From: Octopus sinensis
Lineage: Eukaryota
Direction: 5' to 3'
Length of the DNA: 64,000 nt
Assembly (NCBI RefSeq): GCF_006345805.1
Contig: NC_043001.1
Coordinates: 68,138,001-68,202,000, forward strand
Of the stretch, positions 1,286 through 64,000 are shown one piece after another; position 1 is the stretch's first letter, and the number at the start of each line of letters is the position of its first letter. The translations under genes were made by a program, and so were the position numbers. The notes under the pieces were generated by a model. It made no database searches. It was not told the origin of the DNA and saw only the letters and a list, made by a program, of their open reading frames with translations.

Positions 1286-1317
1286 TATTATTATCATCAT
1301 CATCATCATCATCATCA

Positions 1318-1387
<70 letters not shown>

Positions 1388-1390
1388 CAT
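1286..1390. repeat. (TCA)n/(TTA)n microsatellite at the 3' end of a Dong LINE
   Basis: Direct reading. Confidence 0.95.
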
Positions 1391-2875
1391 TCAGCAGTTT
1401 TATTTTTATAACGTGCTTTCACTTCACTACCGAGCGCAGCTCTGTGTGCCTTGGGTATATGCTGTGATTTGTTGTGATGCTCTGATGGTTACTGTATTGA
1501 AAGTGTTCTGCATAGGATGTGGGCAGTGCCTAGTAGTACAATTTTCTGTATGTTATATGTGTTTGCAAGTCCTGGTGTTTTTGTTACGTATTTGTCTGAA
1601 TATTTTTTTCATGCCTAATGCACCTACTATGATAGGAATTGTTTCTGTTTTTAGATTCCACATTCTAGTTACCTCTATTTCCAGGTCTTTGTATTTTGAA
1701 AGTTTCTCCATTTCTTTTAGAGACACGTTGTCATCTGCTGGTATTGATACATCAATTAGAAAGCATTTTTTTCTTCATGATCTCTGACAACTATATCTGG
1801 TCTGTTGGCCTTAATTTCTCTACCTGTGTGTATTGGCATATCCCAGGGTATGGTTGCTTTCTCGTTTTCTGTGACCTTTTCTGGTGTGTGCCTATACCAT
1901 CTTTTTTCTGTTGTTATTCCATAATATTGACATAGCTTTCAGTGTATGTAGGTCCCAACTCTGTCGTTTCTTAGCCAGGACCGGACAGCCAGAGATAATA
2001 TGATTTATTGTTTCTTGTCCATCTCCACATATTCTGCAGTTACTTGTTATATTTCTTTTCATTACATGACATGTTTTTGGTAATTTCAGGTGGGGAGGCT
2101 TTGGTCTTGTGCTGCAATTAAAAAGCCCCCTGTCTCTGCTTTGAGACCTGAGCTTCTCAACCATTGCTGGGGTTTTTCTTTGTCTATTTCTTTTGCATTT
2201 AGTTTAGTCCAGTATTTGCCACGAAGGGCTTTCTTGCCATCGTTTATCATGGTTCGTTGCTGTTCTATTTTTAGTTTGGATTTCATTGTTTTATAGTTTT
2301 ATTGTGTTTTCTTCTTCTTCTCTTCTTCTTCTTTCTTTTGTCTTCTTTTCTTCTTCTTTCTTCTTCTTCTTCTTCTTCTCCTTCTTCTCTTCTTATTCTT
2401 CTTCTTCTTCTTCTCTTCTTCTTCTTCTTCTTCTCTTCTTCTTCTTCTTCTTCTTCCTTCTCTTCTTCTTCTTATTTGTTAGGTGGTATGATTTCTTGTT
2501 TGTATTTGTCAGCTTCCTTAAATACTAAGAACAATTTTTTGTTTTGCTCGTGTTTTGCCGCTATTTGTATCAGTTTTCCTTCCTTCTGAAGTAGGTATTT
2601 TTGTAGTCCTATGGTGGTTAATTTATAGTAGTTTTCCAGCTTTATAAGGCCTCTGCCACCTTCTATACGTTGTATATATAGCCTTTCTATGTCAGATTTT
2701 GGGTGATGCATGCATCCTAGATCCTGTTATTATTTTTCTTGTTTTCCTATCTATTTTGGTTAGTTCATTTAGCGACCAGTTAAGGATATTGTAGCTGTAA
2801 CTTATAACTGGGACGGCTCAAATGTTAATACCTATTATCTTGTTTTTAGCATTGAGCTCTGTTTTTGGTATTGAT
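1390..2875 (-). mobile_element. Dong/R4-like RLE LINE family A, 5'-truncated, decayed
   Basis: Reverse complement of 41999-43360; translated pieces MHHPKSDIERLYIQR, CRICGDGQETINHIISGC (CCHC), RLE region. Confidence 0.93.
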
Positions 2876-3948: not shown

Positions 3949-4023
<75 letters not shown>

Positions 4024-4025
<2 letters not shown>

Positions 4026-4180
4026 AGTGGCTGATGTGTGTAAGTAGCTTGCTAATCAACCACATGGTTCCGGGTTCAGTCCCACTGCGTGGCACCTTGG
4101 ACAAGTGATTTCTGCTATAGCCCCGGGCCGACCAATGCCTTGTGAGTGGATTTGTAGATGGAAACTGAAAGAAGCCTGTC

Positions 4181-4236
<56 letters not shown>

Positions 4237-4444
4237 TGTGTGTCTGTGTTTGTCCCCCTAGCATTTCTTGACAACCAATGCTGGTGTGTTTACGTCCCCG
4301 TCACTTAGCGGTTCGGCAACAGAGACCGATAGAATAAGTACTGGGCTTACAAAGAATAAGTCCCGGGGTCGATTTGCTCGACTAAAGGCGGTGCTCCAGC
4401 ATGGCCGCAGTCAAATGACTGAAACAAGTAAAAGAGTAAAAGAG
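4024..4444 (+). mobile_element. SINE family A, full length, tRNA-derived head with internal (TA)n
   Basis: A-box-like TGGCTG..TGTGTAA and B-box-like GGTTCAGTCCC; body repeated at least 7 times in the window. Confidence 0.9.
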
Positions 4445-4762
4445 TATATATATATATATATTACTTAAAAGCAGCAGGAATGTAACAAATATACATACAC
4501 ACGTTTGTCTTTCACTTGTTTCAGTCATTAAACCGCGGCCATGTTGAGACTCCAAAAATAAAGGTATATCTAAAAATCAAAAAAATATCAACTAGACTGT
4601 CAATGGGAGGCAACACTTTACTTATTATATGTGTATGTGTGTGTGTCATTATGTGTGCCATTTTTCCACACGTACAGTAAAACCTACCTTTTTTCTGTCG
4701 AGGCCTTATATGCCCCATTATTTAGACTATTTTCTGTAGTCATTGCTCGGTGATCGCTTTAT

Positions 4763-4893
4763 AAGCTTTAAACTTATAAAATTTATTATTATTATTTACA
4801 GAATTGTAAAAATCGACGCTGGTAACAAAAAAACTATGCGTCGATTTTACATTCTGTAAATAATAATAATAGTATTTTATAAGTTTTAAGCTT
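4763..4893. repeat. Long imperfect inverted repeat (fold-back), arms ~57 bp, loop 18 nt
   Basis: aagctttaaacttataaaat..tacagaattgtaaaaatcgacgc / gcgtcgattttacattctgtaaa..tataagttttaagctt. Confidence 0.85.
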
Positions 4894-4910: not shown

Positions 4911-4961
<51 letters not shown>

Positions 4962-4964
<3 letters not shown>

Positions 4965-7308
4965 TGAAAGCTAAAGAAGTCTGTTTTGACTTGCATATCG
5001 TAGCCGGATTAAGGAACAAGTACAGAGTGCGTTAACCGGCTCTGTGGTTAATAACGGGTGGTGATTCGCCCTCAAGAGTGCTGTGAAGGGCCAATCACGG
5101 CCGAGGAGGTGATCGAAATGCTAGGCGAATGCCCTGGGGAGAAGTCGCCGGGTCTTGGTGGTTTACCCTATGAATTTTATAAAAGTATGCCAGACTTGTT
5201 CGGGCACCTGCTGGCCAGCGTCTACACCAATTGGAAACAGAATGGGAGAATTCCCAAGTCTGTGAGCCAAGGGGTGGTGACGTTGATCAGGAAGGACCCG
5301 AGTAAGGGGGACGAAATAGGAAATTTTAGGCCCATAACTCTGTTGAGCACAAAGTTAACGATTTTGGCCAAGGTGCTAGTGAAAAGGTTGGCGCGTTGCG
5401 TGGAGAGACTTGTAGGAGAAGCGCAAACGTGCGCTATCCCGGGCAGGTCGATCCACGACAATCTCCATTTTATACGCTACTCCATAGAGGGCACTGGTAT
5501 ATTTAGACCAGTCTAAAGCATTTGATAAGGTCGACCATCGGTACTTGGCGGCGGTCCTCCATGAGGCTGGCCTGGGCCCGACCTTCCGCGGTTGGATTGC
5601 GTGTTGTATAGCGACATTGAGTCTGTCGTGAAAGTGAATGGTTTCTTTTCGAAGCCATTCAAGATCGAGCACTCAGTGAGTCATGAGTGTCCCCTGTCTC
5701 CGCTTTCGTATGTATTGGCTCTTGAGCTATTGCTGCGGACGTTGGAGGCACTGGAGAGTGTGCTGCATGATCTATGATGTGGAAGACATCTCCATCATCG
5801 TGGCGAATGAGATATAGCTTCAAGTGGTGGAAGAGGCCATCAAAATTTACGAGGCGGTGGCAGGAGCAAAAATTAACAAGGGCAAGTCGGTCGGTTTGCA
5901 ACTCGGCACCTGGATGGGCAAGCTGATGGCGTCCAAAATGTCGTGGGGCGTTGGACGGAAGGTCTTGTTAAGCTGCTCGGAGTCTGGGTTGGTCCAGACC
6001 TCCAGATAGAGAAAAATTGGAGTGAGGTCACCAGCAAGGTGACTGCTCTAACCCAGACCTGGTTTGGGTGGGCGTTATCCTTGCTAGGGAGGGCGAAGGT
6101 GGTGCAGATGTTTATAGCATCAGTAATCACCTACTGTCTGACCGTGGTACCTTCCCCGATTTGTGGCTGAACAAGTTGGATTCTTTTTGTGGAAGGGAGG
6201 CAAGCCATTTGTGAAGCGCTCTGTCTGTTGCCAGAAACTGCTAAAAGTTGGGCTAGGGATGCCTTGGCTGAAGATGCGAAAATTCACGTTAAGGCTGAGG
6301 CACCTCTAGCTTTACCTGGATAGAGAGCAGGTGTGGTCACCGCATGTCCAGTTCTATCTTCCGCAATTAACGTCCTTAACATGGATCATGTAGAGACCTA
6401 GGCTGGGGGACTGGCAGCTGCAGTGCCGTCAGGCACTTCAGCTGCTCTCTCGGGCGGGAAATGCCGGCAGCAGGAGTTTATAGCGGGTTAGTGGAGTTTA
6501 TGTCCTTAGACGCCTTGGGGGAGACCCTAGGCTACGATGAAAATCAGTTGATCAACCTGTTCAGGAGAGCTTTTAGGCTGGGGTATCTGAACAGTTATCA
6601 GAAATCCCTGGCTTGGCAGTGCTTCCGTGCGGCGTTACCTGTTCATGATAAACCGTCAAGGCACGGAAGTGCCGTCTCACCGACATCTCCGAGGTGCAGG
6701 CAGGACAGGGAAACCGTCTTACATGCATTTGTGGAGTGTCTGGAATTAACGTAACTGATAGCTTTCATAGAACAACTGTTGTCATCGATTGGAAGAGTAC
6801 AGCTATCGGCTGAGTCTATCATCGACATTGTGCCTCCTTCCCTTAACAGGGAGAGAAAAGCTTGCTTTTTCTGCGTAGTAGCCTTACTGAAAGAAACAGT
6901 ATGGAAGACGCGTGTGAAAGGAATAGTGATGGATGCCTTTGTATTTGGCCAGGGGTTAGTTAACTTTTTTAGTTACCAACTCAGTAGTAATATCAGCCTG
7001 GAGGAGAGGTACCTGTCACGAGAAAGATTCGATAAAAGATGGAAGCTTTTGGGAAGAAAGCTGGTAGAAAGTGGCACCAGGTAAGTGGAGACCCAGAAGA
7101 AAAGCAAAGGTTCTACCCTGGTGACCGGATGTCTTTCCTTTAAGGAATACACTGCATGTTGTGGTGGGTATCATAAAATTTTAAAACTGAATTTTTAAAC
7201 GATTCATCATTCGATAAAATGAACATTTTAATCGTCACAGCTTCTTCATCCTTTTATGTTTGTCTGTCCTCGTTTGTCCCCTCCTGCATGACAAATTTTA
7301 ATGAAATA
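4962..7308 (+). mobile_element. Tx1-clade (L1-like) LINE, 5'-truncated, internally deleted, decayed ORF2
   Basis: KSPGLGGLPYEFY, NFRPITLL, QTCAIPGRSIHDN, GAKINKGKS; collinear with the 58.8-61.6 kb ORF2; FALK joined directly to ECCEGPI. Confidence 0.92.
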
Positions 7309-7424
7309 AAGAAGCTTGCTTCCCAACAACTGCATGACACTTTGAGTAAGTGTCTTCTACTGTAGCCTCAGGCCGACCAAAGCATTGTGAGTGAATTTGA
7401 TAGGCAGAAGCTGAAAGAAGCCTG

Positions 7425-7485
<61 letters not shown>

Positions 7486-7710
7486 CTATATATATGCGTG
7501 TGTGTGCTGTGTCTGTGTTTGTCCTCCACCATCGCTTAATAACCGATATTGGTGTGTTTACGTCCTCGTAATTTAACGGTTCGTCAAAAGTGACCGATAG
7601 AATAAATACTAGGTTTACAAAGAATAAGATCTGGGATCGATTTGTTCAACTAAAGGCGGTGCTCCAACATGACTACAGTCAAATCACCGAAACAAGTAAA
7701 AGAATAAAAG
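7309..7710 (+). mobile_element. SINE family A lacking its first ~20 nt, starting at the Tx1 junction
   Basis: Aligns to 4024-4444 from AAGAAGCTTGCTTCCC onward. Confidence 0.88.
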
Positions 7711-7821
7711 TATATATATATGTATGTATGTGTGTGTGTGTGTGTAAATATATATTATGTGTGTATATATCTATGTAAAGTATACACAACCAAATCTCCC
7801 GACTCACCCGCGCAGTGTGTC

Positions 7822-7853
<32 letters not shown>

Positions 7854-8614
7854 TGTATGTATGTATGTATGTATGTATGTATGTATGTATGTATGTATGT
7901 ATGTATGTGTTATGTATTTATGTATCTATTTATTTATTACTTGTTTGACTCAAGGAATGTACAAATTCCTTTAATTCTCTACGTGATTAAGATATGAGTT
8001 GACGCGGAGGAAATTAGGAGAATTGGCGTGAAGTCACGTCTTACCAGATCCTTCTGTGACAAACATAAATATGTAAACAAATACGAAACTTTTAATAAAT
8101 ATCAAGTCATGTTTTAAAAATGTGATGTGGTTTTATTTAACCCATGGTCAGTCCTAAATGAGTAAATTTGCTTTCTGTATCATTCAAGCATGACCATTCT
8201 TTTCTTCCTAAATGAAAATTGTAACAAGTCCTTTTTTTTTTTTGGAGTATTATGAAATTTGCAGATCATATAGCTGTTATTTCTACCAAATCAAATAACC
8301 GCTCCGACTATCCCTGGCAGTCTCAAAGTGAGTTCTAACATTGACACATTTTGAAATAGGATTATTGTCAATTTGATTGAGCCTCCTCTCTTCACTGCTT
8401 TTATCTACCAAGGGCGGGATTTTAATTCAGATCATCAAGCTGATTAACTAATTAGTGCAATACATTATGTTCGCTGCTCTGTTGAATGCATCATTCTCCA
8501 AATAACTCGTGGGACACGATATGGGCCAACATTAAAATTCCTCTTCACTGTTTAAGTTATCTCAGCTTGTAACCTGATAATAATAGTTCTCAATATTTAG
8601 TCCTCCCATCCCGC

Positions 8615-8970
8615 CGTCGTCGACTTTGCCTTTCATCATTTCAGGGATGATAAAATAAATGCCAATCGAACTCTTGGGTCGGTATAATCGGCTTACTCCA
8701 GCACCAAAATTGCTGGCCTTGTGCCAAAATTTGAAATCAATATTTAGTCCTCCTAAGATGGTAAACTGACAGAATCGTTAACACACCGGGCAAAATGCTT
8801 ACGGCGTCTCATCCGTCTTTACGTCCTGAGTTCAAGTTCCGCCGAGGTCAAGTTTACCCTTTATCCTTTCAGGGTGGGTAAAATCAGTACCAGTTCAACA
8901 CTGGAGTCAATATAACCAACTTACCCCCTGCCCCCAAATTGCTGGCCTTGTGCAAAAATTTGAAACCAAT
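8615..8970 (+). mobile_element. Two tandem SINE family B copies (MetaSINE-like central domain)
   Basis: GTCGACTTTGCCTTTCATC..GGG..GATAAAATAA..ACCA core; second copy has B-box GAGTTCAAGTTCC. Confidence 0.85.
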
Positions 8971-9580
8971 CTTTATGTCCCCTTCTCTTTCCCCCACCGA
9001 TAAAGTAGGATGCTTAAAGGGTAAATTAATTTCAAATATATCTTGATGGAGCGATAATTTAGAGTAACCTTAAGAGAAGGAAAATAGAAAGCAACAATAA
9101 CAAGCACAAGTCATAGAAATTACTAAGAAGGCGACCCCAAACCCCTGATGACATTTGTCGCTAAACAGCCTCCGCCCACTATTTTTAGTGCGGGAGAAAT
9201 AAACTCGCCTGAAACGTCATAAACACGAGTAAAAGCCTGAAACGTCATGTGTAGCTCTCGGAGGTTCGAGGTAGTTTTCTTCTCCTTTTTTTTTGCTTCT
9301 GTTATTATTTGCAGGGTTTTTTTTATGTAAACCCACATCGTGGGTTTATGTAAACCCCTTCCCCTCAAAATTGCTGGCCTCTTAGGCATCTCTTTGTGGA
9401 TTTTCGTACGGATTATGTAAAAGGTTTTGAAGTAACAATATAATTAGGTGGGTGTTTCCAGTTAGCTTCTCCTATTGTACAGGAAATTAGGAAATCGGTT
9501 TAAGAAGCTAACGAAATAGTCGTTATTTAAACACTGCTCCTACATATATGCATACATACATACATACATACATACATATA

Positions 9581-9640
<60 letters not shown>

Positions 9641-10475
9641 CAAGGTGCGATGAGTAAATTGTCACCATATTTCGCGAATGCGTATTGTTTCTTTTTGATT
9701 TTGTCGACTACACAATATAGTAGGGTCCATTGGGAACCGTCTGTGAGGAAAATAGCACCATGACGCAATTCACTCTGCCAGAAATTTGGAAATCACATAC
9801 ATCCGGCACGATTGTATTGGAACAATCGCGCCGGATGTTCCAATACAAACATACCCGAGTGTTCGGGTGTCAATCTGAAGACAGTGAAATCTAAGGACAT
9901 GTACCGAGAGTGATAAAAATCAAACAACCATTCAACATCATGGTGTTCGGAATGATCACTAGTGATGGCGACGTTATGCCTCCATTCATTTTCCTCAGAT
10001 TCAACACGGAGGCCAACATTAAGTGCCTGGAGGAGGTAGTGTTGACCTGGGTCAAGTGTGTGACTGCTGGAAGACCCTATGTCTAGCAACAGGACTCTGC
10101 ACCAAGCCACGCAAGTAGGAGAACCCAGTCACGGCTGTCAGACAATTTCTGCGACCACATAATCCCTAGCATCTGGTCGCCTAATTCCCCAGACTGCAAC
10201 TTCCCTTGATTCTGAGCGAGAGATCAACAAAATTCCTTGTAATATCAAAGACGAACTGAGGTAAGAATTATGGCAGGATTCACCAACTTAAACATGAAGA
10301 CCGTCCAGAAGAGTTGCAGGGGATTCCGAAGTCGTCTGGAGGTCGTTGTTGTAGCCAATGGCGATTTTATTGAATAAATTTACTCCTTAGTATAATTTTG
10401 GTAAATATATATGTTAAAATGAGATATCAGTGTTATTTTCATTTTTGCGTAACTGAGACGACAGTTTATTCACCG

Positions 10476-10480
<5 letters not shown>
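9641..10480 (+). mobile_element. Internally deleted mariner-superfamily element with TIRs
   Basis: TIR gcgatgagtaaattgtc vs revcomp of gacagtttattcaccgc; internal QQDSAPSH and W.PNSPDCN motifs. Confidence 0.85.
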
Positions 10481-10559
<79 letters not shown>

Positions 10560-10561
10560 TA

Positions 10562-10646
<85 letters not shown>

Positions 10647-10691
10647 TGTATGTATATGTATATATGTGTGTGTGTGTGTGTTTAAATAAAT

Positions 10692-10926
10692 GCGCCCTTT
10701 TAAAGCTCATGGGCCCGGTTTCCCGTTTCAATGGCGTATGTGTTCCCCAGCTGGACGGGACGACAGTCCATCGCAGCGTTACTCATTTTTGCCAGCTGAG
10801 TGGACTGGAGCAACGTGAAATGAAGTGTTTTGCTCAAGAACACAACGCGACGCCCGGTCCAGGAATCGAAACCACAATCTTACGATCATGATGTTGACAC
10901 CCTAACCACTAAGCCACGCGCCTCCA
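10692..10926 (-). mobile_element. SINE family C (tRNA head)
   Basis: Minus strand begins GGAGGCGCGTGGCTTAGTGGTTAGGG..GGTTTCGATTCC; homolog at 35338-35560. Confidence 0.85.
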
Positions 10927-10984
10927 CTATATATAGTTATTTTAGCACAAGGCCAGCCCTATGATATATAAGATTGTAATAATT

Positions 10985-11165
10985 ACAGAATCATTAGCAC
11001 GCTGAGCAAACTTCTTAGCGGCATTTTTCCGTCTTTATTTTCTGAGTTGAGATTCCGCGGAGGTCGCCTACTTTTAATCCTTTCGGGATTGATAAAATAA
11101 GCACCAGTTGAGCACTGGGGTCGATATTACCTTCATCCACGAAATTGCTGACTTTGTGCTAAAGT
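10985..11165 (+). mobile_element. SINE family B
   Basis: Similarity to 18552-18765. Confidence 0.8.
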
Positions 11166-11179
11166 TATGTATATATAGT

Positions 11180-11397
11180 GAAGGTGCGTGGCTTAGTGGT
11201 TAGGGTATTTGGCAAAAATGAGTAGTACCTGTATTTCAAAGGTACTACTCATTCTGTGTCACGCTGAATCTCCCTGAGAACTACGTTAAGGGTACGCTTC
11301 TCTGTGGAGTGCTCAGCCACATGCAGGATAATTTTACAAGAAGGCTGTTCCGTTGATCAGATCAACTGGAATTCTTGTCGTCGTAATTGACGGAGTG
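11180..11397 (+). mobile_element. SINE with family-C-like head, internally deleted
   Basis: GAAGGTGCGTGGCTTAGTGGTTAGGG A-box head. Confidence 0.6.
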
Positions 11398-13347
11398 TAT
11401 ATGATTTATTTATAAATATATTCATACGTGCCTTGTGAGTACTTTGGTTTTCTGAATCAGCGACAATTTGAGAGTTTTGTTAACGGGACCCACTACATTT
11501 CACTGATAGCCTAATATCCGATTTATCGTTATATTTTTATTTGTGTCTACATGCTACAGCTGCCCCAACTGGTTTTTAACACTAACTTCATGTATTTATT
11601 TCATCAATTATGTTTTACTTGCTAAAATATTCATAACACTTCAGGTTTCACTTATAAAAAAAAACCCTTTTAAACATTAAAAAAGAAAAATAACACACAC
11701 CCAATCAGTCAATAGAAACTTTTGAATATTTTGCAAGCTGCAAATATGTTTAGTCATCGGAGGACGTTTTTCTTTTATTCATCACCGAAATATCCGGATA
11801 AACGAGTTTAGGACGAATATAGGTAAATAGAAGACGCGCAATAATAAAAAGCAAACAATATAAAACATAATATCAAAATATCTATCCTGTCATTGATGAC
11901 TTTGAATCATGTTTCATTTTCTTTTAAAGTTGTCTTCCTGTTTGTTGCTCGTTGAGTTTACGAAAGAAGATTTTTCACTAAATCTGACTCAAGTTATACT
12001 CTACCATGTTAAAAAGAAAACGAAACGTGGAGAATGTTGTCCTAGATATGACCGTCTGATATTAAATGAAATGTTAAATACTTACAGTATGCAAATTAGA
12101 TGCTCCAGTTGTCTGGAATTACTAGATTTGACATGTATATAAATATATTGGCTGCTCGTTTCTGTTATATTTAGTCAAGTTATGTGGACACATCCGATGA
12201 GACTCAACTCGGTCGAAAATTGGTTAAGACCGTTAATCATATTCATCGATTTACAGAAAAATAGGTATACGTTTGACATGATTGTATAACTACCATGCAT
12301 CTTTTTATACAAAAAGAAGATGTGGTGATTACGGCTGGAACGTCCATGGTCACAGGTCCGCTCGATAGATCTATGGCCTGGGGTTAAACAACAATAATAA
12401 AAGCAACATGAAACCTCATTTAGCACAAGTTTTCTCTTGATCCACAAACCGTTTACAAGAAAATGAAATACTATTTATTCAGTAACTCGGGATTGTTTTG
12501 GTCTAAGATCTGGAACTAAGGTAAAAATTCCAACAGTATAGCATTACTACTGAATGCAACCAGGACAGGACATCAACATTAAAACATTCCATTACTTTTG
12601 CTGTGGGCAAATTGTACGATGAGAAAAAACTTACATATAGATCAATGTTGAATGTATTGATGATGGTCGACATTCGATAGAAACATAACTTTGCACATTT
12701 ATTTCAAAGAACAAAGTCAATTTAACATTGCATTATAGGTTTGTGTCATATCTTGTAGCCAAGAATGAAAGCTTCTTCTTTGCAGGAGATAAGTTATTGC
12801 CAACTTAAACAAACAGACAGACAGACAGAAAGACAGACAGACAGGCAGACATACACACATACACACAAACATAGACATACACACGCTAACATACATACAC
12901 GTAGCTACCCCCTCCAAATATATATGCATTTCTTTTTAGTTAAAACCGAATCTGAAAATTTGTCTCGTGGCCCCCATACTCAGCGAGAGTTTTGAGGGAC
13001 AAACGCTTCGAAACCGATAGAATCAACCCTGATTTTAAATTCACATTTATACCAATAGTTATTACTACACTTAGTACTCTTAGTAAATTATCACAAGCAA
13101 ATGTTTATATTTTAGGCGAAGGAAGAGAACGTTTAACATACACAAATACGATCTATGACGGGAACAGTAAATATTTACAGTGATGGCCCTTCTGTTTCAG
13201 AAATCTAAGAATTAAGAAAAAATGCTAGTACAGTTCCATACATACATACATACATACATACATACATACATACATACATACATACGTACATACATACATA
13301 CATACATACATAGGTAGTTTTGGTTGTGTGGTAAGAAGCTTTCTTCC

Positions 13348-14529
13348 GGCGCATGCATCGGTCTATTCGCTGTGTTGATTTTTGATGAGTCGGACGGAAT
13401 TTTTTGGGCTGCTTGGCAGCGGTTTGTGAGTGGGCGTTTTACCGGTGGAAAAAATGTATTCGGGCCTTAGCAAGTATGAGCTGTCCTCAGCGGAAGAGGA
13501 GCTCGTTAAGGCGGTAAATAGAATGGACGAGCATTTGGAAAGAGTAAATAATTTTGCTGAGGCTGCAGAGGTGAAGAAAAGAGAGGTGGACCTAGCCGCA
13601 CTGAGGGAGCTGAGTAAGATGACACAGAAGGTGGGCGGTGACGTAAAGTTATTACCCCCGAAAAGGGCCATCGAAAATATGGAAAAGAAGACCATTACCT
13701 ACAAGGTGTACTCAGTGGAGAGTAAAACGTCCACTCACAAACCGCTGCCAAGCAGCCCAAAAAATTCCGTCCGAATCGTGGAGCGGATGGAGATGGAAAA
13801 AGTAGAAAAGGCATTGAAGAGGCATACCTAGCGAAAGGAAATGCACATAGGACGGTGGTTGTCCAGTTTAAGACAGCGGAAGAAGCAAAGAGGCTGCCGA
13901 GTGCAACTGTAAAAGCGGAGGAAGTGGTACTTCTACCCACGTACCTTGGAAGAAAGACTTCTAAGGTGAGGGTAGAAAGAAATCCACCCGATATAGAAGT
14001 GGCTTGGTTTGCGGCAGCCGTCCCTAGTTAGAAGTAAGGAGGAAGTGGCTGTCTCCAAGCCACGGAAACGGAGGACGGAAGATGGAGAGGAAAAACACTG
14101 GGCCTTATTTTACAGGCAGAGGAGAGTCAATTGGAGAGTTTGGTGGAGACGGTGACGTTGGAAGAGATTGTGTTAAGAGTGTGGGTAGAGGGCAGAATCC
14201 CACTATGTTTTAAATGTGGCCAAAAATGTGAAAAAGATTACGTGTGTCACTCAGCGATGGGGAAAACGGTAAATGAAAGACTAGATCAAAGACTAAAGAG
14301 GATTCAGGACTCAGAGGTAGCGAGTGGTGTTACTCAGTGTTACACTTTTCATATTCTCATTTCTCAGTTATCATTCATGTATCATTATTTTAATATTTTG
14401 ATTTTAATGTTTTTCATGTTCATTTTCATGTGTCATTTATAGCATCATATTTTTATTTTTTTATATGTCCCCACATGTGTTGTAGTGTCCCCCTCTATGT
14501 AATGCCTTTATGGCAATTTAAAAGAAATA
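13348..14529 (+). mobile_element. Non-autonomous Tx1 derivative (5'UTR + ORF1 relic + 3'UTR, no ORF2) inserted in a SINE-A head with 15-bp TSD
   Basis: KKTITYKVY, LLPTYLGRKTSKVRV, VWVEGRIPLCFKC match ORF1 at 62630-63931; TSD aagaagctttcttcc (13333-13347) / aagaagcttgcttcc (14530-14544). Confidence 0.85.
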
Positions 14530-14672
14530 AAGAAGCTTGCTTCCCAGTCACATGGTTCCGGGTTCAGACCCACTACGTGGAACGGTGGGCAAGTGTCTCC
14601 TACTATAGCCTCGGGCCGACCAAAGCTTTGCAAGTGGCTTTCGTAGACGGAAACTGAAAGAAGCCCGTCGTA
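14530..14672 (+). mobile_element. SINE family A 5' half; its head is at 13313-13347
   Basis: Continues the SINE-A sequence after the insertion. Confidence 0.88.
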
Positions 14673-14740
14673 TATATATGTATGCGTGTGTGTTTGTGTG
14701 TATAAAGACAGACAGCCACACACACAGAGGCATCCAATTT

Positions 14741-21247: not shown

Positions 21248-21323
21248 CATATATATATATATATATCTATATATATATATATTATATATATATTATATAT
21301 ATATTATATATATATATATATGA

Positions 21324-21404
21324 TAAAATTGGAACGATACAGAGAAAATTAGCATGCCCCTGCGCAAGAATGACACGCAAATTCATGAAGTGTTCCATAT
21401 TTTT
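21324..21404 (+). pseudogene. U6: U6 snRNA pseudogene lacking the 5' stem-loop
   Basis: TAAAATTGGAACGATACAGAGAAAATTAGCATGCCCCTGCGCAAGAATGACACGCAAATTCATGAAGTGTTCCATATTTT matches the U6 3' ~80 nt incl. ACAGAGA box and AGC triad; about 5 differences, two CpG-type. Confidence 0.93.
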
Positions 21405-39233: not shown

Positions 39234-39390
39234 GTGGCTGTGTGGTAAGAAGTTTGCTTCCCAATCACATGGTTCCGGGTTCAGTCCCACAGCGTGACAC
39301 CTTGGACAAGTGTCTTCTGTTATAGCCTCAGGCTGATTATAGCCTTGTGAGTGGATTTGGTAGACGGAAACTGAAAGAAGTCCGTCGTAT
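39234..39390 (+). mobile_element. SINE family A 5' half, interrupted by the PLE fragment
   Basis: Family A head and body up to GAAGTCCGTCGTATA. Confidence 0.88.
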
Positions 39391-39394
39391 AAAT

Positions 39395-40290
39395 TTATTG
39401 CAAAAAGCAACACAAATCGCTAACAAATGCGAAGTTTTACAAAACAAACACGAAACCAACGGTTAAAAAATGTGGACGCCCAAACTGTGGAACCTGCCCC
39501 AACTTACTTGAAGGCTCGGATTTCCTTTTCAAATAAGGAGAGAGATTCACAATTAAAACTAGTTTCAGTTGTGCCTCTAAGAACCTAATTTGTGTAATAA
39601 CCTGCTCGGGTTGTGGACACAACTATATTGGACAGACGAGTATGATCTTGAGATGGAGAACCACTCTACATAAAGAGCAAATACGTTTCCCGCAATACAG
39701 GTAAATCCCTCTCAGTGAACATATAGAAAAATGTGAAGATAACATCAAACCAAATTTCACAGTCTACCCATTCTACAAGTGCAAAGACACAATTTCTCCA
39801 CAAGAACGTTTGAAGAAACACTTTTCATCGAAAAATACAGAACACGTCTTAATATGCACGCATAACCAAATTTTATCTTTTTGCATATTTCAGTTCACGA
39901 GTTCATCACTGTACATAAATCCCCTCACTAAACAAGTTTTTCGAAATTTTTTGTGTGTACATATATATATTCCCCCCCCCTTACCGAAAACTGAACAGCT
40001 GTCTCCCTTGTCCACAACAATAGCAATAATAACGATAATCACTTACGTCTCCTTATTTTCTACTTTTGAAGTCATTCACTCTTAAATATCATCATACACA
40101 ACATGAATAACATTTTTTTTCTTAAGAAAATACATATTCAAATAAGTAAACGTTAATATCATGAATAGCGAAAGCGAAACCAGTCGATATATTATACTAT
40201 TTAATGTGTGTATATTTTCCTTTTTTAATTTCTTTTATATATATTCAACTCACAACGTGGGGATAGTCGAAATTCTTTTTTCTGTTACTA
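39395..40290 (+). mobile_element. Penelope-like element 3' fragment: Zn-finger linker + GIY-YIG endonuclease pseudogene + 3'UTR
   Basis: CGRPNCGTC..FSCASKNLICVITCSGCGHNYIGQTS..LHKEQI..LSEHIEKC..FIEKYRTRLN with stops; CxxxxCxxC linker as in Neptune-type PLEs. Confidence 0.9.
40156..40190 (+). ncRNA. Minimal type I hammerhead motif, A3-U8 core variant, in PLE 3'UTR
   Basis: atatc ATGAATA gc gaaa gc GAAA ccag TC gatat. Confidence 0.7.
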
Positions 40291-40526: not shown

Positions 40527-40647
40527 TATATACACGAGTCAGTGGACATGTAACTCACACGTTTAGTGGGAGTTACATATATTATTTAAAACAGTTTGAT
40601 TCAATTTCCGAAACTTAAAGTAGCACGAATCAAACTGATTTTTTTAA

Positions 40648-40732
<85 letters not shown>

Positions 40733-40743
40733 TAATAATAATA

Positions 40744-43360
40744 AACGCCAACGCTTCTTTGAACAAAACAAAAAGTTCAACTCCAACCCCAAAAAGTTCT
40801 ACCAAGAACTGGGCAAAAATAAAATAGAAGTCACTGCAGCACCAACGGCAGAAGAATTGGAAGAATTCTGGAGAGAAATATGGTCGGCGAACGAACAACC
40901 CAAAAAAAGGAGTATCAAAATAACAAACTCAGCATCTGAACAACTTTGGACCCCCATAACAACTGAAGAGGTCACCCAGGCACTGCAAAGACTAAGCAAC
41001 TGGAAGGCACCTGGGCATGACAAGATCCCCAACTTCTGGTTGAAATATCTAACAGGAATGCACAAAAAGCTGGCTGAAAACTTTAATAACATACTAGCAG
41101 AGCCAGAGACAATGCCTGAATGGCTCACGAAGGGGAAAACCATCTTAATTCCCAAATCAAATGAAACAGCAAAACCAGAAAACTACAGACCAATAACCTG
41201 CCTCCCTACTATGTTCAAGGCATTTACTGCAGTGATATCGCAAATGCTGAACAAGCACCTGGACGAAAACAAACTGTTCCCAGAAGAGCAGAAAGGATGC
41301 CGCAAAGGCTCATATGGCTGTAAAGATCAACTAATGATTAATAAAGCCATAACTGAAGACAGCCAGAGAAAGAAGAAAGGCCTCAGTATGCCCTGGATTG
41401 ACTACAAAAAGGCGTTTGATAGCATCCCCCACACATGGATCCTCGAAACACTAGCCATTAACAAAGTAGCACCAACAATCATAAAATTCATAGAGCACTC
41501 TATGAATAAATGGCAAACAGTCCTACATCTCCAAACAAAAGAGGGACTCATGAAAACCAAAGACATCCCCATTAGAAGAGGAATATTCCAGGGAGACACG
41601 CTCTCTCCACTCCTTTTCTGCTTGTCACCTCTATCTGATATACTAAATAGAACTGGATGCGGATATAAATGTTACGGCAAAACGATCAGCCACCTTTTAT
41701 ATATGGATGACCTAAAACTATACGCTGCAAATGACAAACAGCTGGAAACACTATTAAAGACAGTTCATGGATTTACCAAAGAAATAGATATGAAATTTGG
41801 ATTAGAAAAATGCGCCAAAGTAACCATGAAAAGAGGAAAACTAGTTAAGAGTAACAACATCACACTAGATAAAACCAATGAAATAAAAGAATTAGACCAA
41901 AGCCAAACTTACAAATACTTAGGAATCCATGAACTAGATAAGACACAACACACACAAATGAAAGAGAAAATAAAAAAAGAATATTATAGACGAGTTAGAT
42001 CAATACTAAAAACAGAGCTCAATGCTAAAAACAAGATAATAGGTATCAACACTTTAGCTGTCCCAGTTATAAGTTACAGCTACAATATCCTTAACTGGAC
42101 ACGAAATGAACTGACCAAAATAGATAGGAAAACAAGAAAAATAATGACAGGATCTAGGATGCATCACCCAAAATCTGACATAGAAAGACTATATATACAA
42201 CGTATAGAAGGTGGTAGAGGCCTTATACAGCTGGAAAACTACTATAAAATAACCACCATAGGACTTCAAAAATATCTACTCCAGAAGGAAGGAAAACTGA
42301 TACAAATAGCGGCAAAACACGAGCAAAATAAAAAACTGTTCTCAGTATTTAAGGAAGCTGACAAATACAAACAAGAAATCATACCACCTAATAAACATGA
42401 AGAAGAAAAAGAAGAAGATGAAGAAACAACAAAAGCTATAAAACAAATGAAATCCAAACTAAAAGTAGAACAGCAACGAACCATGATAAAACGATGGCAA
42501 GAAAAGCCCCTTCATGGTAAATACTAGACTAAACTAAACGCAAAAGAAATAGACAAAGAAAAATCCCAGCAATGGTTGAGAAGCTCAGGACTCAAAGCAG
42601 AAACAGAGGGATTTTTAATTGCAGCACAAGACCAAAGCCTCCCCACCAGAAATTACCAAAAACATGTAATGAAAAGAAATATTACAAGTAACTGCAGAAT
42701 ATGTGGAGATGGACAAGAAACAATAAATCATATTATCTCTAGCTGCCCAGTCCTGGCTAAGAAGGAATATATTCACAGACATGACAGAGTTGGAACCTAC
42801 ATACATTGGAAGCTATGCCAACATTATGGAATAACAACAGAAAAAAGATGGTATAGGCACACACAAGAAAAGGTCACAGAAAACGAGAAAGCAACCATAC
42901 TCTGGGATATGCCGATACACACAGATAGAGAAATTAAGGCCAACAGACCAGATATAGTTGTCAGAGATCATGAGGAAAAAAATGCTTTCTAATTGATGTA
43001 TCAATACCGGCAGATGACAACGTGTCTCCAAAAGAAATGGAGAAACTCTCAAAATACAAAGACCTGGAAATAGAGGTAACTAGAATGTGGAATCTGAAAA
43101 CAGAAACAATTCCTATCATAGTAGGTACATTAGGCATGATAAAAAAATATTCAGACAAATACATAGCAAAAACACCAGGACTTACAAACACATATAACAT
43201 ACAGAAAATTGCACTACTAGGCACTGCACACATCCTACGCAGAACACTTTCCATACAATAACCATCAGAGCATCACAACAAATCACAGCACATACCCAAG
43301 GCACACAGAGCTGCGCTCGGTAGTGAAGTGAAAGCACGCTATAAAAATAAAACTACTGAA
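40744..43360 (+). mobile_element. Dong/R4-like RLE LINE family A, 5'-truncated, nearly intact RT-CCHC-RLE coding region
   Basis: KAPGHD, NYRPITCL, EEQKGC, DYKKAFDS, GIFQGDTLSP, LLYMDD; CRICx8Hx4C; RPDIV..IDVSIP..KEMEKLSKY; premature TAG at 42525 and a frameshift near 42975; (TAA)n on both sides. Confidence 0.96.
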
Positions 43361-43467
43361 TAATAATAATAATAATAATGATAATAATAATAACGATAAT
43401 GATAATAATGATAATGATAATGATAATAATGATAATGATAATAATAATGATGATAATGATAATGATA

Positions 43468-44413: not shown

Positions 44414-44620
44414 ATTAATTCCTTTATTGGCCACAAGGACTTACGTAGAACAACATGAAATGACAAAACAGGACGATACAAAGGGTTTTAAAACAAGCAT
44501 ACGATATGATATCACACCCCTGAATAATAAAACCAATGGAAATGTATGGAGTAGCAGAAAATAGGAAAAGCCTTATGTTGAATAGCATGAAACACTGGAG
44601 AACAGAATTAACAGCAGAGA
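44414..44620 (-). mobile_element. Tx1 3'UTR fragment
   Basis: ttaattcc..tattggccacaagg..acaaaacaggacga..tacaaagggtttt matches 58547-58635. Confidence 0.75.

Positions 44621-46820: not shown

Positions 46821-46882
<62 letters not shown>

Positions 46883-46886
<4 letters not shown>

Positions 46887-47989: not shown

Positions 47990-47994
<5 letters not shown>
46883..47994 (+). mobile_element. Dong/R4-like LINE family A 3' fragment flanked by (TAA)n
   Basis: Nearly identical to 42246-43360. Confidence 0.95.
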
Positions 47995-48037
<43 letters not shown>

Positions 48038-48219
48038 CTTTTCTAGTATAGGCAGAAAGCCTGAAATATTGCATCGACTCCAGTGTTTCAGTGCTACTTA
48101 CTTTATCGACCTCGACGGATGAATGGTAAAGTCATACTCGGCAGAATTTGAACTCAGAACGCAGCAGCAGACTAAGTATTTCACTCGGCGTGCTAACGAT
48201 TGTGTCACCTTGCCGCCTT
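48038..48219 (-). mobile_element. SINE family B
   Basis: Reverse complement of family B. Confidence 0.75.
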
Positions 48220-57611: not shown

Positions 57612-57776
57612 CTCTTTTACTTGTTTCAGTCATCGACCCCAGGACTTATTCTTTGTAAGCCTAGTGTACTTATTCTATTGGTTTCTTTTGCCGAACCGCT
57701 AAGTTACGGGGACGTAAACACACCAGCATCGGTTGTCAAGCGATGTTGAGGTGACAAACACAGACACACTAACACA

Positions 57777-57863
<87 letters not shown>

Positions 57864-58003
57864 TACGACGGGCTTCTTTCAGTTTCCGTCTACCAAATCC
57901 ACTCACAAGACTAATAGAAGACACCTGCCCAAGGTGCCACGCAGTGGGACTCAACCCGGTACCATGTGGTTGGTAAGCAATCCACTTACCAGACAGCCAC
58001 TCC
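57612..58003 (-). mobile_element. SINE family A with internal deletions
   Basis: Reverse complement of family A. Confidence 0.85.
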
Positions 58004-58069: not shown

Positions 58070-58089
58070 TAATAATATAATAATAATAA

Positions 58090-58384: not shown

Positions 58385-58492
58385 TAATAATAATACTGTC
58401 TGTCTGAGGTCCCCGGTAGACACAATATCTTCAATTATCAACATCATGATACTGGATACTGTGTCACGTATTAGATAATAATAATAATAATA

Positions 58493-58547
<55 letters not shown>

Positions 58548-58818
58548 TAATTCCATCTATTGGCCACAAGGGCTGACACACATGATTAGTAAACATAAAG
58601 GGACAAAACAGGACGAAAGGTTACAAAGGGTTTTGTCCGTTTGTAAAAAATCCGAGTAAAAACAGTTCAACAACGAAAGATTATAACAATGAAAATCTCC
58701 CAAAAGGGGGAGGCGTTACGAAAGGTTCCTGGTGGAAAAATCCCATAAAAGCCAACGGTAGCCTGGTCAAAAAAGGGGGGTAGAGAGCCCTTTTCTCCTT
58801 TTATAAAACCTTTTTCAA

Positions 58819-61800
58819 TCACAGGCGAAACTTGAGAATTGGTCCATTTATAATGGTCATTCTTGCACAATTCACCCACCTTTCAGAAAACTTGCTATCG
58901 GACAGCACTCTCCTCTCTAACCTCATCTTCCTTTTCAAGTGAAACTTGAAAAAGTTGATGAGGCCTTGACCAAAGAGGAAAGTGTCTGACTTTAGCCCTT
59001 TGAAACCGGTCCACCATACAACCTCTTTCGCCACAGCCACTAGGCACAAGAAAACGGCCTCGCCCTCCTTGTTAAAGGAGGTCGGCGGGGCAATCTTCAC
59101 TATGGATTCGGCTGATAGCCGGATCCGTCCTATACGCGACAGTAAGTGTTCGACATAAACCCATATTTCAGCAATACTCGGGCTCTGGACGAGTGCGTGC
59201 AGAACGGTTTCGTCGTCCGGGCAACACCTGGGGCAGGCCCGGCTGACGGCACTTCCGTACCGGTAGAGATTATCCCAAACAGGCAGAGCTCCTCGGTAGC
59301 ATTGCCAGGCGAGCGACCTCTGGAAATTATCCATTGGCCCCGGCCCGAAAGTCCTTCCGAACAGACCGCTCAGTTCGTTATCGTCAACGCCTAGAGTTTC
59401 TCCGAGAACGTCGTCGCATTTTTCCTACACTAACCCTCTATAGAATGCTAGAGTGGGACTGAAACCGATCGCATTGCTCGCCTGGCGGAGGGCGGAGCGA
59501 GCTTGAGGGCACTTGAGGTGCCAAGCGCCCTTTCTCGGTCTACGTTTGATCCAGGTCTGCAGCTCTGTCAAAGAGACGAGCTGCGGAAAGTCGCGTCTGA
59601 CAAACGACGACCACACCTGTTAACCGTCTAGGAAACGCTTGAGATGTCGCAGCCTGAGCGCATGTCTGCGCATCAGTAACCACGGCATGCCAAGGCCTCC
59701 GTTCAGCGGTCGTTGACAGCAGATGGATCGCTGACCTGTGGCACCTGACCCTTCCACAAAAAGTCGAAGAGCAGCCGTACCAGCTTGGCCAACCAGCGGT
59801 CGGGACAAGGGACGACGGTCAAGCGGTAATAGATGACCGATGCGATGTACACATTCGCCACCTCCGCTCGACCTTTCAGGGACAGCTTCCTCTCGGCCCA
59901 TTTCTGGGTGAAACGTGCCACCCTGCTCGTCACCTCTTCCCAGTTTTTATCCACCTGGAGGTCCGGACCGAACCAGACCCCGAGCAGTTTAACGGGTCCG
60001 TCTGTCCAGCGCCCTACGACGCTGTTGGACGGCATGGGCTTGCCTCTCCAGGTGCCCAGTTGCAAGCCCACAGACTTTTCCGCGTTAATCTTTGCTCCTG
60101 TCACCGCTTCGTACTCGTTTAGTGTCTCACTAATCAGGCCAATGTGCCTGTGGCTCGACACCATCACGGTGACGTCGTCAGCATAGGCAGACACGCTGTT
60201 TCCGCCTCCTAGATCGCGCTGATACCCGTCAAAGCCTCCAACTTGCGCAGTAGTGGCTCGAGAGTCAAAATGTACAAGAGGGAGGAGATAGGGCATCCTT
60301 GGCGGACCGAACGCGAGAGTTCAAACGGTTCCGAAAGGTGACCGTTCACCCGTATCACCCGTATCACCAAGCAGATGTTGCTGTATAAAGCAGCGATCCA
60401 CCCGTGGAACACTGGACCGAAGCCGGCTGCCTTGAGAACAGCTGCCAGGTACCGGTGGTCGACCCTATCGAAGGCTTTACTCTGATTTAAATTGATCAAA
60501 GCCCCACCCGCGCCAGCATCGTTACCCATCCTCTCTATGATGTAGCGCATGAGATGGAGGTTGTCGTGTATCGACCTGGTCGGCACGGCGCATGTCTGCG
60601 TCTTGCCAACCAGCGTGTCCACGACAAGCGCCAATCTCTTGGCTAGCACTTTGGCCAAAATCTTCAACTCTGCATCGAGCAGAGTGATGGGCCCAAAATT
60701 CCCTATAACGTCCCCCTTGTTTGGTTCCTTTTTTAGCAAAGCCACCACCCCTCGACAGACAAAAGCAGTAATTCTCCCGTTCTGCTGCCAGTTGCAGTAG
60801 ACGTTTGCCAACAGGCCCGCAAACAAGTCTGGCATTGAAGTGTAAAGCTCGTAGAGCAGACCACCCAAACCCGGCGATCTACCTCTCGTGCAACTCTTCA
60901 TCGCTTCTTCCACTTCCCAGGCAGATATCGGTCCTTCGCAGCACTCTGCCTCGCTGTTCGAGAGTTGCGGTAGGCCGTCCAGGTACACACCGAAGTCTGT
61001 GCCGATGGTGTCCGTTCCACCGTTCGTCGTCCCAAACAGTTGAGCAAATTGCCGCTGAAACACCGCACACATCTGCTTCGGTTCGGTAACCTCGCGCCCG
61101 TTCTGGTCCACCAAAGACCGAATGGTTGCTTTGTTGCCTCGCTTCGCCTCCGCCACGCGGGCCCATCGAGCGGCTCTAGTCCCCTCCCCGCTTAGCGAAC
61201 GTGCATTAGCTCTGACAACGCAGCCTTCGTGTTTGGCGTCGAAGTGTTGGTCGAGGGCCAACTTTGCCGCCAACACGTCGGTCGCGATGCCAGTCTCAAG
61301 AGCCTCGTCTAGTTTCTTAACTAAATCCCGCTCTCTCAAACTACGTTCAATAGCTAGAGCCTTACTAAACCTAATCGACTCTACTCTAATTGCTCTCTTG
61401 AGGGCAAACCACCAGTTGTTGTTGATGATTGCCCCCGTGAGCGCCCGCTTAACTAGTAAACTAATCCGGTCTCTGTAAGCTTTGCATGTCGTTAACAACG
61501 CGTTCAGCTTCCAGTAGCCGGGTCCCTGTCTATGTAGCCTATCTAAGTCGACCGTACAGATCACGAATTTGTGTAGTCGACTAGGTGGAATTGTGGACAC
61601 CCTATGCTGTCCTTATCCGCTGGCCTACAAAACACTCTATCTAAGTACGATCTAGACGACCCGATGCGATTGGTCCAAGTCCACATTGGCACATTCGGGT
61701 TGTCTAGTCGAAACCTGTCGGACAGCTGAACGCGTCCGAGTAGGTTGGCGAGGCTCTTGCACCCTCCTCTCCTATTAGACGCTCCCCTGCCCACCCGATC

Positions 61801-62233
61801 GAAACGTTCGTCTAACTAGCACTAGAGTCCGTGACGTTCCCAGGAAAACTTTCAGACGTTTGAAATAATCCGACTGCCCTGCTCCTGTCGGAGCGTAGGC
61901 AGCCAGCAGTCTGAAAGCACCGCCGTCACTACCGTCTACGTCGAGGACCACCAACTTACCTTCCGGATCCAGGAAGACTGTCCTTATTTTCAAGTCCAGG
62001 CCCTTCCGAAACAACACCGCAGTACCACCACCGCCCGCTCCCGGCCGACACGGAGATAGAAATATCTCGTATCCGTCGAAAAGGGCTGCGAGTTCCTGCG
62101 GGTCGGAGAGCCTGGTTTCACTAATGGCTGCTACATCCACATCATGAAACCTCAGGTCGTTTAACAGGTGACCCTGTTTCCAAGGTGACCCGAGGCCTCT
62201 CACATTCAAGCAACCGATTCTAAGTTTTGCCAT
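58819..62233 (-). pseudogene. Tx1 ORF2 (APE endonuclease + reverse transcriptase), frameshifted
   Basis: LNVRGL, ISET, YAP, SYLDRVF, YWKLN, SKAFDRVDH, SVRQGCP, AYADD, CPRC..ETVLHAL split over several ORFs. Confidence 0.93.
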
Positions 62234-62273
62234 GTTTCAAAGGTGGGAAAAAAAGTAAAAGGAGAAAAAGGCT

Positions 62274-63931
62274 CTACTTACTGTTGTTGGTGGTGGGGGT
62301 GGCTCCCTTGTGCTTTTGCACGGGTGCTTCCACGATATTTTTATAAACGACATCGTTAGGGAATATTTGTTTTATTTCATTGTATGTTGTTGCGTTTATT
62401 TTTATTGTGAGAATGTGTGCTGGTGGTGTGTTGTGTGTTGGTATAACGAAATCTGTTATATTTGTACTTGTTTTGTCTTTTAGGTACGCAACGAGTTTTT
62501 CATTCTTTGTGTTTATTGATGTAATTGTGTCTCTGTGTGTTGGTGTGTGTGGCAGTGGCAGTAGTGGTGTCGAAAGTGTTGTTGTTTGTTGTTGTGAGTG
62601 TGTGTTGTTGTTGTTGATGTTGGGAAGCACTATTTGTTCGTGCTTCCCCTGTGTGTCCTTTTGTTTTTTCCTCCTCTTCTTCTTTGGAGGCACTGTGTGC
62701 CATTCTCCTTTCTCGGTATCAGTGCTCGCACAATCCGAGCTGTCCTGATCCGGAAAGGGGATGGCTGTCGGGTCCGCTTCATCAGCAGGGCGAAAGATTG
62801 TTTGTTCTGCTGGTAGCGGTGGTGTTGCTGTGTCTTTTGGTGATGGTGACGGTGTTGGTGTTTCTTCTTCTTGTTTTTTGTTGTCGTTTTTCTTGGTGCT
62901 GAGGTTGGTGTTGGTTTGGTGGTTGTTGTTGGAGGTGGTGTCGTTCGTCGTGGTGGTGGTGATGGTGTTGGTGGTGTGGCAGTCTTTGGTGTATCTTGCT
63001 GTTGTTGTTGTTGTTGCTGCTGCTGTTGCTGCCTCTTGCCGTATGTCTCCATTCTTTTTTTGTGAATGGGGCAGTCCTTCGTAAGGTGGTTTTCGCTCCT
63101 GCAGAGGTAACATTTTGGCTTTCGCCCCTCCACAGTAACGTGCAGCCTGGTTCCGTCTGGTAAAATGACTGAGTCAGGTATGGGATTAATGTTTTCCTGC
63201 TGGATTTGTACCAGCAGTTGAACACCCATACCTGACCAGTTCTTCTCTCTTACCCTTCGTACATCTAGAATAGTAGCAGTGTCCTCTATGTCATAGAGGA
63301 CAGCCGCCACTAGCCATGATATACTGAGTTCGTGGGGTACTATATAAATTTTAATTTTTTGTACTTTCCGCCCGAGGTATGATGGGACCAGAAAGAAATT
63401 TTCATTTTGCAAGGGCGAAATGGCATGCGCCCTTGCATCGTCTTCCGTTGGGAAACGAACCTCCACCGTCCCGTAACGCTTCCCTCTTGTGACATAGCTC
63501 TTTTTGGCCCATATGGGTTTAAGAGCCATTTCCAATTGTTGGGGTGTTGCATTAGTTATTTTTTTGTTTTTCTTATCGAAAACTTTATAACTTACAGTTT
63601 TTTTGTTTGTTTCATTTATGAGTTGTTGAGGTGTATTGAGGAAAACACTGTTTCCCTCTTTTCTCAACAACTCCTTTGCAGATTTTATTTCGTCAAATGT
63701 AACTTGAATTTGTTCTGAGTTTTCTTTTGTGATGGAAGCAAAATTGCTATGGTGGCTTGTTGTGCTGTTGCTGGTGGTATTGTCGGTGATGCTGCTTGTT
63801 ATTTTCTTTTCTTCTTTTTCCCCTACTGTTGCGCTCATGGAAGGAAGTGAAAGAAAATTTTGATTGACGTCAAAGGCGACGCCATCTTTGTTGCTTTGCT
63901 TTGCAACTGTCTTTTTTCCGTCCTTTTCCAC
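62274..63931 (-). pseudogene. Tx1 ORF1 (CCHC zinc knuckle, polyQ/Pro-Thr linker), one apparent frameshift
   Basis: CYLCRSENHLTKDC; EWHTVPPKKKRRKK lies in the overlapping second frame. Confidence 0.85.
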
Positions 63932-64000
63932 TACTGAGACGCTTGTAGCGGGAAGAGGAGGGAAATCTTCGAAGACGTCAAAAGTGACGCCTTCGTTTTC

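Follow-up and report, generated by a model that had tools for sequence, protein, structure and literature searches.

An L1/Tx1-type LINE lineage of Octopus sinensis probably targets one base in the head of a SINE

In a 64,000-nucleotide stretch of the Octopus sinensis genome (NCBI RefSeq assembly GCF_006345805.1, contig NC_043001.1, positions 68,138,001 to 68,202,000; hereafter, the window), two long interspersed nuclear elements (LINEs), here called elements A and B, end at the same base in the head of a short interspersed nuclear element (SINE). We consider it probable, judging from the sequences, that they represent an L1/Tx1-type lineage that targets this single base through a predicted sequence-preferring endonuclease. 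The proposal of a SINE-specialised lineage, made in an earlier note on this DNA, gains from the two independent insertions and from the sequencing depth of the element B family at both of its ends, and it has to be narrowed in one respect: a sister LINE in the window, element C, ends in (ATT)n, so the specificity lies at the level of the lineage.

The exact match between the two loci covers positions 7303-7325 and 14524-14546, i.e. 23 nt that cannot be extended leftward; the 22-nt identity first noted (7303-7324 and 14524-14545) is contained in it. According to an alignment of the SINE copies in the window, the first 6 nt (GAAATA) belong to the element side and the remaining 17 nt to the SINE head. 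At the second locus, the head is split by a 1182-bp insert (13348-14529) located 1 nt past an A-box-like motif. The left half of the head (13313..13347, + strand) carries this motif (13321-13331) and the left copy of the target-site duplication (TSD; 13333-13347), whereas the right part (14530..14683, + strand) comprises the right copy (14530-14544), a B-box-like motif (14561-14570) and the SINE body up to a TA run, with no SINE tail detected behind it. The insert is therefore placed between the two boxes. The claimed site and the claimed 15-bp length of the duplication stand, but the repeat is imperfect (14/15 identical, with T at 13342 vs G at 14539). A search of both strands of the window for the 16-nt target, allowing up to two mismatches, returned only sites 7309, 13333, 14530 and 39247; as none lies upstream of 7309, this search found no left SINE half or left TSD copy for element A. 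The hexamer AATAAA straddles both junctions, its final two bases being supplied by the target, and a poly(A) tail is absent. All 17 target bases are equal between 7309-7325 and 14530-14546, although the SINE copies are only ~83% alike (p ~0.04), an agreement that fits either the choice of well-matching targets or their overwriting by read-through RNA.

Element A (4962..7308, + strand) is a 5'-truncated, decayed L1/Tx1-type LINE, detected by tblastn with protein P0001 and by Pfam matches to RVT_1 (E 2.7e-6) and zf-RVT (E 3.4e-6). It borders on (TA)n at 4961 on its 5' side and consists of a remnant of the second open reading frame (ORF2), with an internal deletion near 5075 and a stop at 7082-7084, followed by a 3' untranslated region (UTR) to 7308. 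The reverse transcriptase (RT) is ~70% identical to P0001 and P0002 and 61-65% identical to two Argonauta hians proteins, so that the window groups with sequences of cephalopod type. P0001, the closest long homologue, matches L1 ORF2p at E 2.7e-50 vs 3.6e-24 for R2; with an RT, a C-terminal zinc motif and a greater proximity to L1 ORF2p than to R2, the element falls in the L1 group, which includes L1 and Tx1. Its full-length relatives carry Exo_endo_phos, an endonuclease lost in element A and present in its sister C. The SINE 3' part behind it (7309..7718, + strand; 79% over 391 nt by blastn to the copy at 4022) starts at the target site, lacks the B-box region, deleted after 7326, and keeps its full tail. 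The locus may be a composite that moved later, or its left part may have been lost; the donor would have sat at the same base. Just upstream, at 4763-4893, a 130-bp AT-rich hairpin with 83% similar arms and TA-run flanks resembles a miniature inverted-repeat transposable element.

Element B (13348..14529, + strand), the 1182-bp insert, is an ORF2-less derivative with a 5'UTR, an ORF1 remnant and a 3'UTR, and belongs to a multi-copy family. The remnant (13454..14225, + strand) runs from an ATG to half a zinc knuckle, CFKC, and is followed by a deletion after 14225. It is homologous to the ORF1 of element C (tblastn E 6e-18) and to P0008 (70-74% identical); Pfam returned no significant match for it, and no ORF2 was detected in element B by tblastn. 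Of the earlier statement that two different Tx1 elements are present, their separateness is upheld, but element B does not qualify as a second autonomous LINE.

The two insertions are separate events. When the 3'UTRs of elements A (7085-7302) and B (14300-14523) were compared, their alignment score was reached by 332 of 500 shuffles, i.e. they are no more alike than expected by chance, as had been claimed, except for the last ~60 nt (40/57 columns alike). The SINE sides, on the other hand, are 82% alike, and the 10 pairs among five copies span 79-91%. A duplicated insertion would have diverged equally on both sides, so the unequal divergence found here marks them as separate events, and descent from one duplicated insertion, named in the note as a refuting case, is rejected on account of unrelated UTRs lying beside ordinary SINE similarity. 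Under a rough model of random insertion, with 10 LINE ends and five SINE heads in 64 kb, the probability that two LINE 3' ends share base and orientation at any of 420 SINE positions is ~6e-5.

Four of 24 public sequence runs were compared with positions 13326-14550, three of them as contig sets (X18, X1 and X9, with three organism codes and three study codes, and all 30 bins covered) and one, X22, as raw reads. Only 21-22 nt of SINE flank was kept per side, to avoid the pile-up of free SINE copies. Matching contigs numbered 667 in X18, 941 in X1 and 790 in X9. At the 3' end, the last-bin depth was 5895, 24801 and 16585, respectively, vs 3280, 9588 and 7786 expected without continuation into the SINE, giving rough estimates of 0.57, 1.13 and 0.81 for the share that continues into it. 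At the 5' end, first-bin depths of 721, 1704 and 2170 vs 250, 815 and 1143 expected gave equally rough shares of 1.63, 0.94 and 0.78, or 0.82, 0.39 and 0.65 under a harsh assumption. In the framework of Kojima, a family is regarded as target-specific when >20% of its flanks are of one sequence type (PMC4494074); by this indirect depth measure, which is not a copy count, the element B family exceeds that share in all three contig sets. Contigs with a base at 13357 that differs from the window extend 32 letters, to 13326, in 3/3 runs. Among the 18 loose-end rows listed, two (12 + 22 = 34 contigs) end at 14546 and read on as SINE, while in five (54 contigs) a joint at 14493/14494 is preceded by heterogeneous sequence (agreement 0.47-0.60), the pattern that would arise from different 3'UTRs with the final 36 nt in common; that these 54 contigs run on into the SINE is suggested by depth rather than contig by contig. 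None of the listed rows (18 of 531) has a loose end at either junction. In X9, one contig joint returns from 13347 to 13333 with one extra base, i.e. a tandem target before an element copy.

Several points weigh against targeting of the SINE by this lineage. Depths are sums over fragmented contigs and give no copy number, and shares above 1 show how rough they are. The listings cover 18 of the 531 loose-end rows and 24 of the 2469 pieces, and with 21-22 nt of flank no record can satisfy a 31-letter bridging rule. Four of the long pieces listed begin close to the 5' end, and none of them extends through the left SINE half, a result that depends on our interpretation of the strand convention: X1-1 stops at 13353 and X9-18 at 13352, with ~560 and 33 unmatched letters beyond, X18-9 stops at 13369 with 57 unmatched letters beyond, and X9-17 ends with its contig. 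X22 gave four reads of 12.9 million, where ~300 would be expected from the same genome assuming a 2.5-Gb genome and 50 copies; the four are <90% alike, lie in an AT-rich patch and are uninformative on the junction. X1 or X18 may share the source of the window itself. The family evidence covers the element B family, for which one copy has a TSD at the site, while element A is truncated and has neither left half nor TSD, and the sister element C ends in (ATT)n. Independently of these points, pattern scans gave 0 matches in metagenome contigs and 0 in genome contigs, and relatives of P0001 were confirmed in none of 30 metagenome, 3 viral and 31 genome-contig candidates.

Element C (58547..64000, - strand), a sister LINE with an ORF1 and an ORF2 encoding endonuclease, RT and zinc finger, serves as an internal control, since it ends in (ATT)n and not in a SINE. 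In a tree of 141 columns and 27 rows, from which P0009 and P0010 were left out, elements A and C form one clade with support 99/96, and both group with the Argonauta-type proteins in one clade among unnamed relatives. The ORF1 of element C matches CCHC and ZCCHC3-RBD clusters at 0.91-0.93. An ORF1 with RRM and CCHC rather than Transposase_22 was thus recognised by way of element C, to which element B is homologous, and an ORF1 of this type is consistent with Tx1 (PMC5203782). Although cluster names and homologue searches returned no named Tx1 reference, the combination of an L1-group ORF2 with an RRM/CCHC-type ORF1 makes the Tx1 identity likely. An L1-Tx1 expansion has been described in coleoids, and the consulted sections of that source mention no integration targets (PMC8967140). 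A short copy of element C (near 58100-58400) also ends in an ATT repeat and a fragment at 44415-44489 ends in a GTT run; the broader idea that all such LINEs here target the SINE is ruled out by these three cases. The short copy is 5'-truncated and sits immediately behind element C (58070-58420, - strand, and 58420-58547); each of the two has an (ATT)n end, and a SINE copy is inserted in the second of these tracts, forming a nested pile in an ATT microsatellite.

By the mechanism that we propose, target-primed reverse transcription would begin when the ORF2 endonuclease nicks 5'-CTTCTT/ACCA-3' on the bottom strand, 1 nt beyond the A box; L1 likewise nicks at a step from a pyrimidine run to a purine. 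The freed 3' end would then prime on the element RNA, a step likely aided by pairing with read-through target sequence because AATAAA is complete only with the first two target bases and no poly(A) tail is present. Co-transcription with the target can strengthen specific integration (PMC4494074). A top-strand nick 15 nt downstream would produce the 15-bp duplication. The site is likely common to several families that differ in their 3'UTRs and to a passenger with ORF1 only, the element B family, itself presumably mobilised by ORF2 in trans. The benefit would likely be a very abundant and dispensable landing pad, and it is reasonable to regard the SINE as a safe haven. The gain of a promoter, also suggested in the note, is not supported, given that the B box has moved from 32 nt to ~1230 nt behind the A box. 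Element B contains 14 runs of at least four T, among them a T5 run 31 nt inside it, and T runs end RNA polymerase III (Pol III) transcripts. With the boxes 1.2 kb apart and 14 T runs, the insertion would silence rather than exploit the SINE promoter, and promoter capture was rejected.

The window contains five SINE heads and seven long tail matches. An uninterrupted head and body of the same target type, with one target mismatch, lies at 39234..39398 (+ strand; A-like motif 39235-39245, B-like motif 39278-39287) and serves as a model of the empty site. Two further uninterrupted copies, a full one at 4022..4445 (+ strand) and another at 57632..58003 (- strand), have variant sequence across the target site: their heads (4037-4064, + strand, and 57967-57993, - strand) read AAGTAG and AAGTGG, vs AAGAAG in the hit copies, and possibly represent a second SINE subfamily. 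With A- and B-like boxes spaced as in a tRNA, copies that are dispersed and an end in a simple repeat, the element has the features of a tRNA-derived SINE; we take it to be the octopus OK SINE. Rfam gave no tRNA model match in either of the two heads tested at E up to 10, as is common for diverged SINE heads, and ARAGORN found 0 tRNA genes in the window. Octopus SINEs were reportedly described as tRNA-derived by Ohshima and Okada in 1994, a title found in reference lists.

Among the explanations that compete with targeting, the one that survives best is hitchhiking, in which one or a few chance SINE insertions were amplified as LINE+SINE composites, by 3' transduction or by way of the SINE tail, and so mimic targeting. 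The stretch 4962-7718 runs from (TA)n to a TA-rich end like those of free SINEs and lacks both a left half and a TSD, as would be expected of a composite moved to this one locus; contig depth cannot separate composites from independent insertions, and the same possibility was raised for SINEU-3 (PMC4494074). Such a process would nevertheless need at least two founders at one base, since the A and B UTRs are unrelated and their SINE sides are ordinary copies, and further founders are suggested by the heterogeneous sequence ahead of 14493/14494. In element B, the TSD lies directly at the site, and a Pol III composite is unlikely in view of the T runs and the disrupted distance between the A and B boxes. 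We therefore hold hitchhiking to be quite unlikely.

A real target elsewhere, either a tRNA gene or a Koshi-type (GAA/TTC)-like motif, with the SINE head hit as an abundant look-alike, seems improbable to us. The target does start with AAGAAG, a preference for (TTC)n, (TTCC)n or (TTTC)n is known for Koshi and its crocodilian relatives (PMC4494074), the sister element C uses a trinucleotide repeat and octopus SINEs bear the tRNA-derived title mentioned above. However, none of the 18 loose-end rows listed enters a GAA repeat, SINE sequence follows in those at 14546, and the negative Rfam (two heads) and ARAGORN (window) results give no support for close similarity to a functional tRNA gene. Coincidence or a weak hotspot, i.e. 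two insertions at an ordinary L1-like TT/A nick site in a very common repeat (SINEs make up ~40% of octopus repeats and dominate there; PMC8967140), is very improbable at p ~6e-5 under random insertion, and depth that enters the SINE at both ends in 3/3 contig sets largely refutes it.

If the lineage does target the SINE head, it extends a known habit. Tx1 LINEs enter piggyBac, Mariner, Harbinger and long terminal repeat (LTR) elements, U2, U5 and 5S genes, satellites and microsatellites; a SINE target was not found in the consulted main-text parts of that source, whose supplements may list more (PMC4494074). Target classes given in part of a second source are rRNA, tRNA, spliced leader, snRNA, microsatellite, telomere and 'other TEs' (transposable elements) (PMC8869645). 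No SINE-targeting LINE was found in the open literature searched, a weak negative as subscription papers and Repbase Reports were thinly covered. The habit of LINEs of entering other mobile elements is thus known, and a SINE-head target appears to be a new kind.

The closest parallel is the crocodilian system of Tx1-Mar and SINEU in Mariner-N4_AMi, where related LINE families and non-autonomous passengers likewise favour fixed positions in an abundant mobile element, with a TSD of ~16 bp (15 bp here) and related lineages in microsatellites (the (ATT)n sister here). Its target, however, is a DNA transposon (Harbinger and LTR elements being others) with two preferred regions rather than one SINE-head base, and its passenger is an snRNA-headed SINE, whereas here it is an ORF1-only deletion derivative (PMC4494074). 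Tx1L in the piggyBac-type Tx1D of Xenopus is also a single-site L1-group LINE in another transposon; there, the target is a DNA transposon and the endonuclease specificity was established biochemically, while here we infer it (via PMC4494074). Keno (U2 snRNA), Kibi and Koshi (microsatellites) share the sequence-specific insertion of the Tx1 clade into multicopy targets, and the (ATT)n ending of element C resembles the habit of the latter two, but their targets are host RNA genes or simple repeats and not a retroposon (via PMC4494074). Dada elements likewise insert preferentially at the Pol III A box of tRNA-type sequences, but they are DDE DNA transposons that hit genuine tRNA genes, with a TSD of 6-7 bp within the A box (PMC8869645), whereas the present case is a retrotransposon whose 15-bp TSD lies immediately beyond an A-box-like motif in a SINE.

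The sites at which sequence-specific LINEs land would thereby include a SINE head, one base of which would be common to several families and to a passenger with ORF1 only. With close (ATT)n sisters in the same genome, the two types form a ready-made comparison for identifying the endonuclease residues by which target choice is switched, an old question that also bears on programmable gene insertion. For repeat annotation, the arrangement is a warning that LINE 3' ends will be fused to SINE pieces in the consensus libraries of these genomes. AAGAAGCTT is present in both hit copies, while 2/3 of the uninterrupted heads in the window have AAGTAG or AAGTGG instead. It is conceivable, if unlikely, that a cephalopod Tx1-type radiation switched from (ATT)n microsatellites to one base between the A and B boxes of the dominant SINE and that the SINE escaped via subfamilies with an altered cut site; in that event each insertion would kill a SINE promoter, and a parasite-on-parasite arms race would be readable from repeat sequences alone.

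Within the element B family, the window copy has peculiarities of its own. A 56-bp inverted copy of 13387-13442 (96%) lies inside its ORF1 at 13722..13777 (- strand) and is absent from other family copies; joints from 13721-13725 to 13778 show that copies in X1 and X9 skip it. Family members also complete the CCHC knuckle, with loose ends at 14225/14226 in 117 contigs from three runs (6 of the 18 rows listed), and both the inverted insert and the deletion after 14225 look private to the window copy. The ORF2-less form itself is not private to it, since three pieces (X1-7, X1-8 and X9-24, with 7-9% differences plus gaps) cross 14340 as the window copy does. Another 21 contigs (2 of the 18 rows) depart at 14340 and are likely a longer form of the family; the remaining three rows lie elsewhere inside the element. 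The longer form continues past 14340 with GTGAGT, and element C has GTAAGT at its ORF1 end (62250-62300, - strand), i.e. splice-donor-like words at matching places. Splicing as the source of the ORF2-less form is disfavoured because junction 14340 keeps no bases up to GTGAGT. A hairpin-like GCC-N5-GGC motif, found by pattern match at 14504..14514 (+ strand), 15 nt before the 3' end of element B, occurs likewise ahead of the 3' end in element C and in its short copy; the same pattern match did not find it in element A.

Elsewhere, a general repeat search of the window was dominated by microsatellites. A full-length U6 snRNA match (21299-21404, + strand; 96 bits) is the only Rfam match at gathering level in the window. 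Three LINE copies, presumably RTE-like, at 40590-43460 (+), 1287-2875 (-) and 46880-48040 (+) are 90-95% identical and end in (AAT)n.

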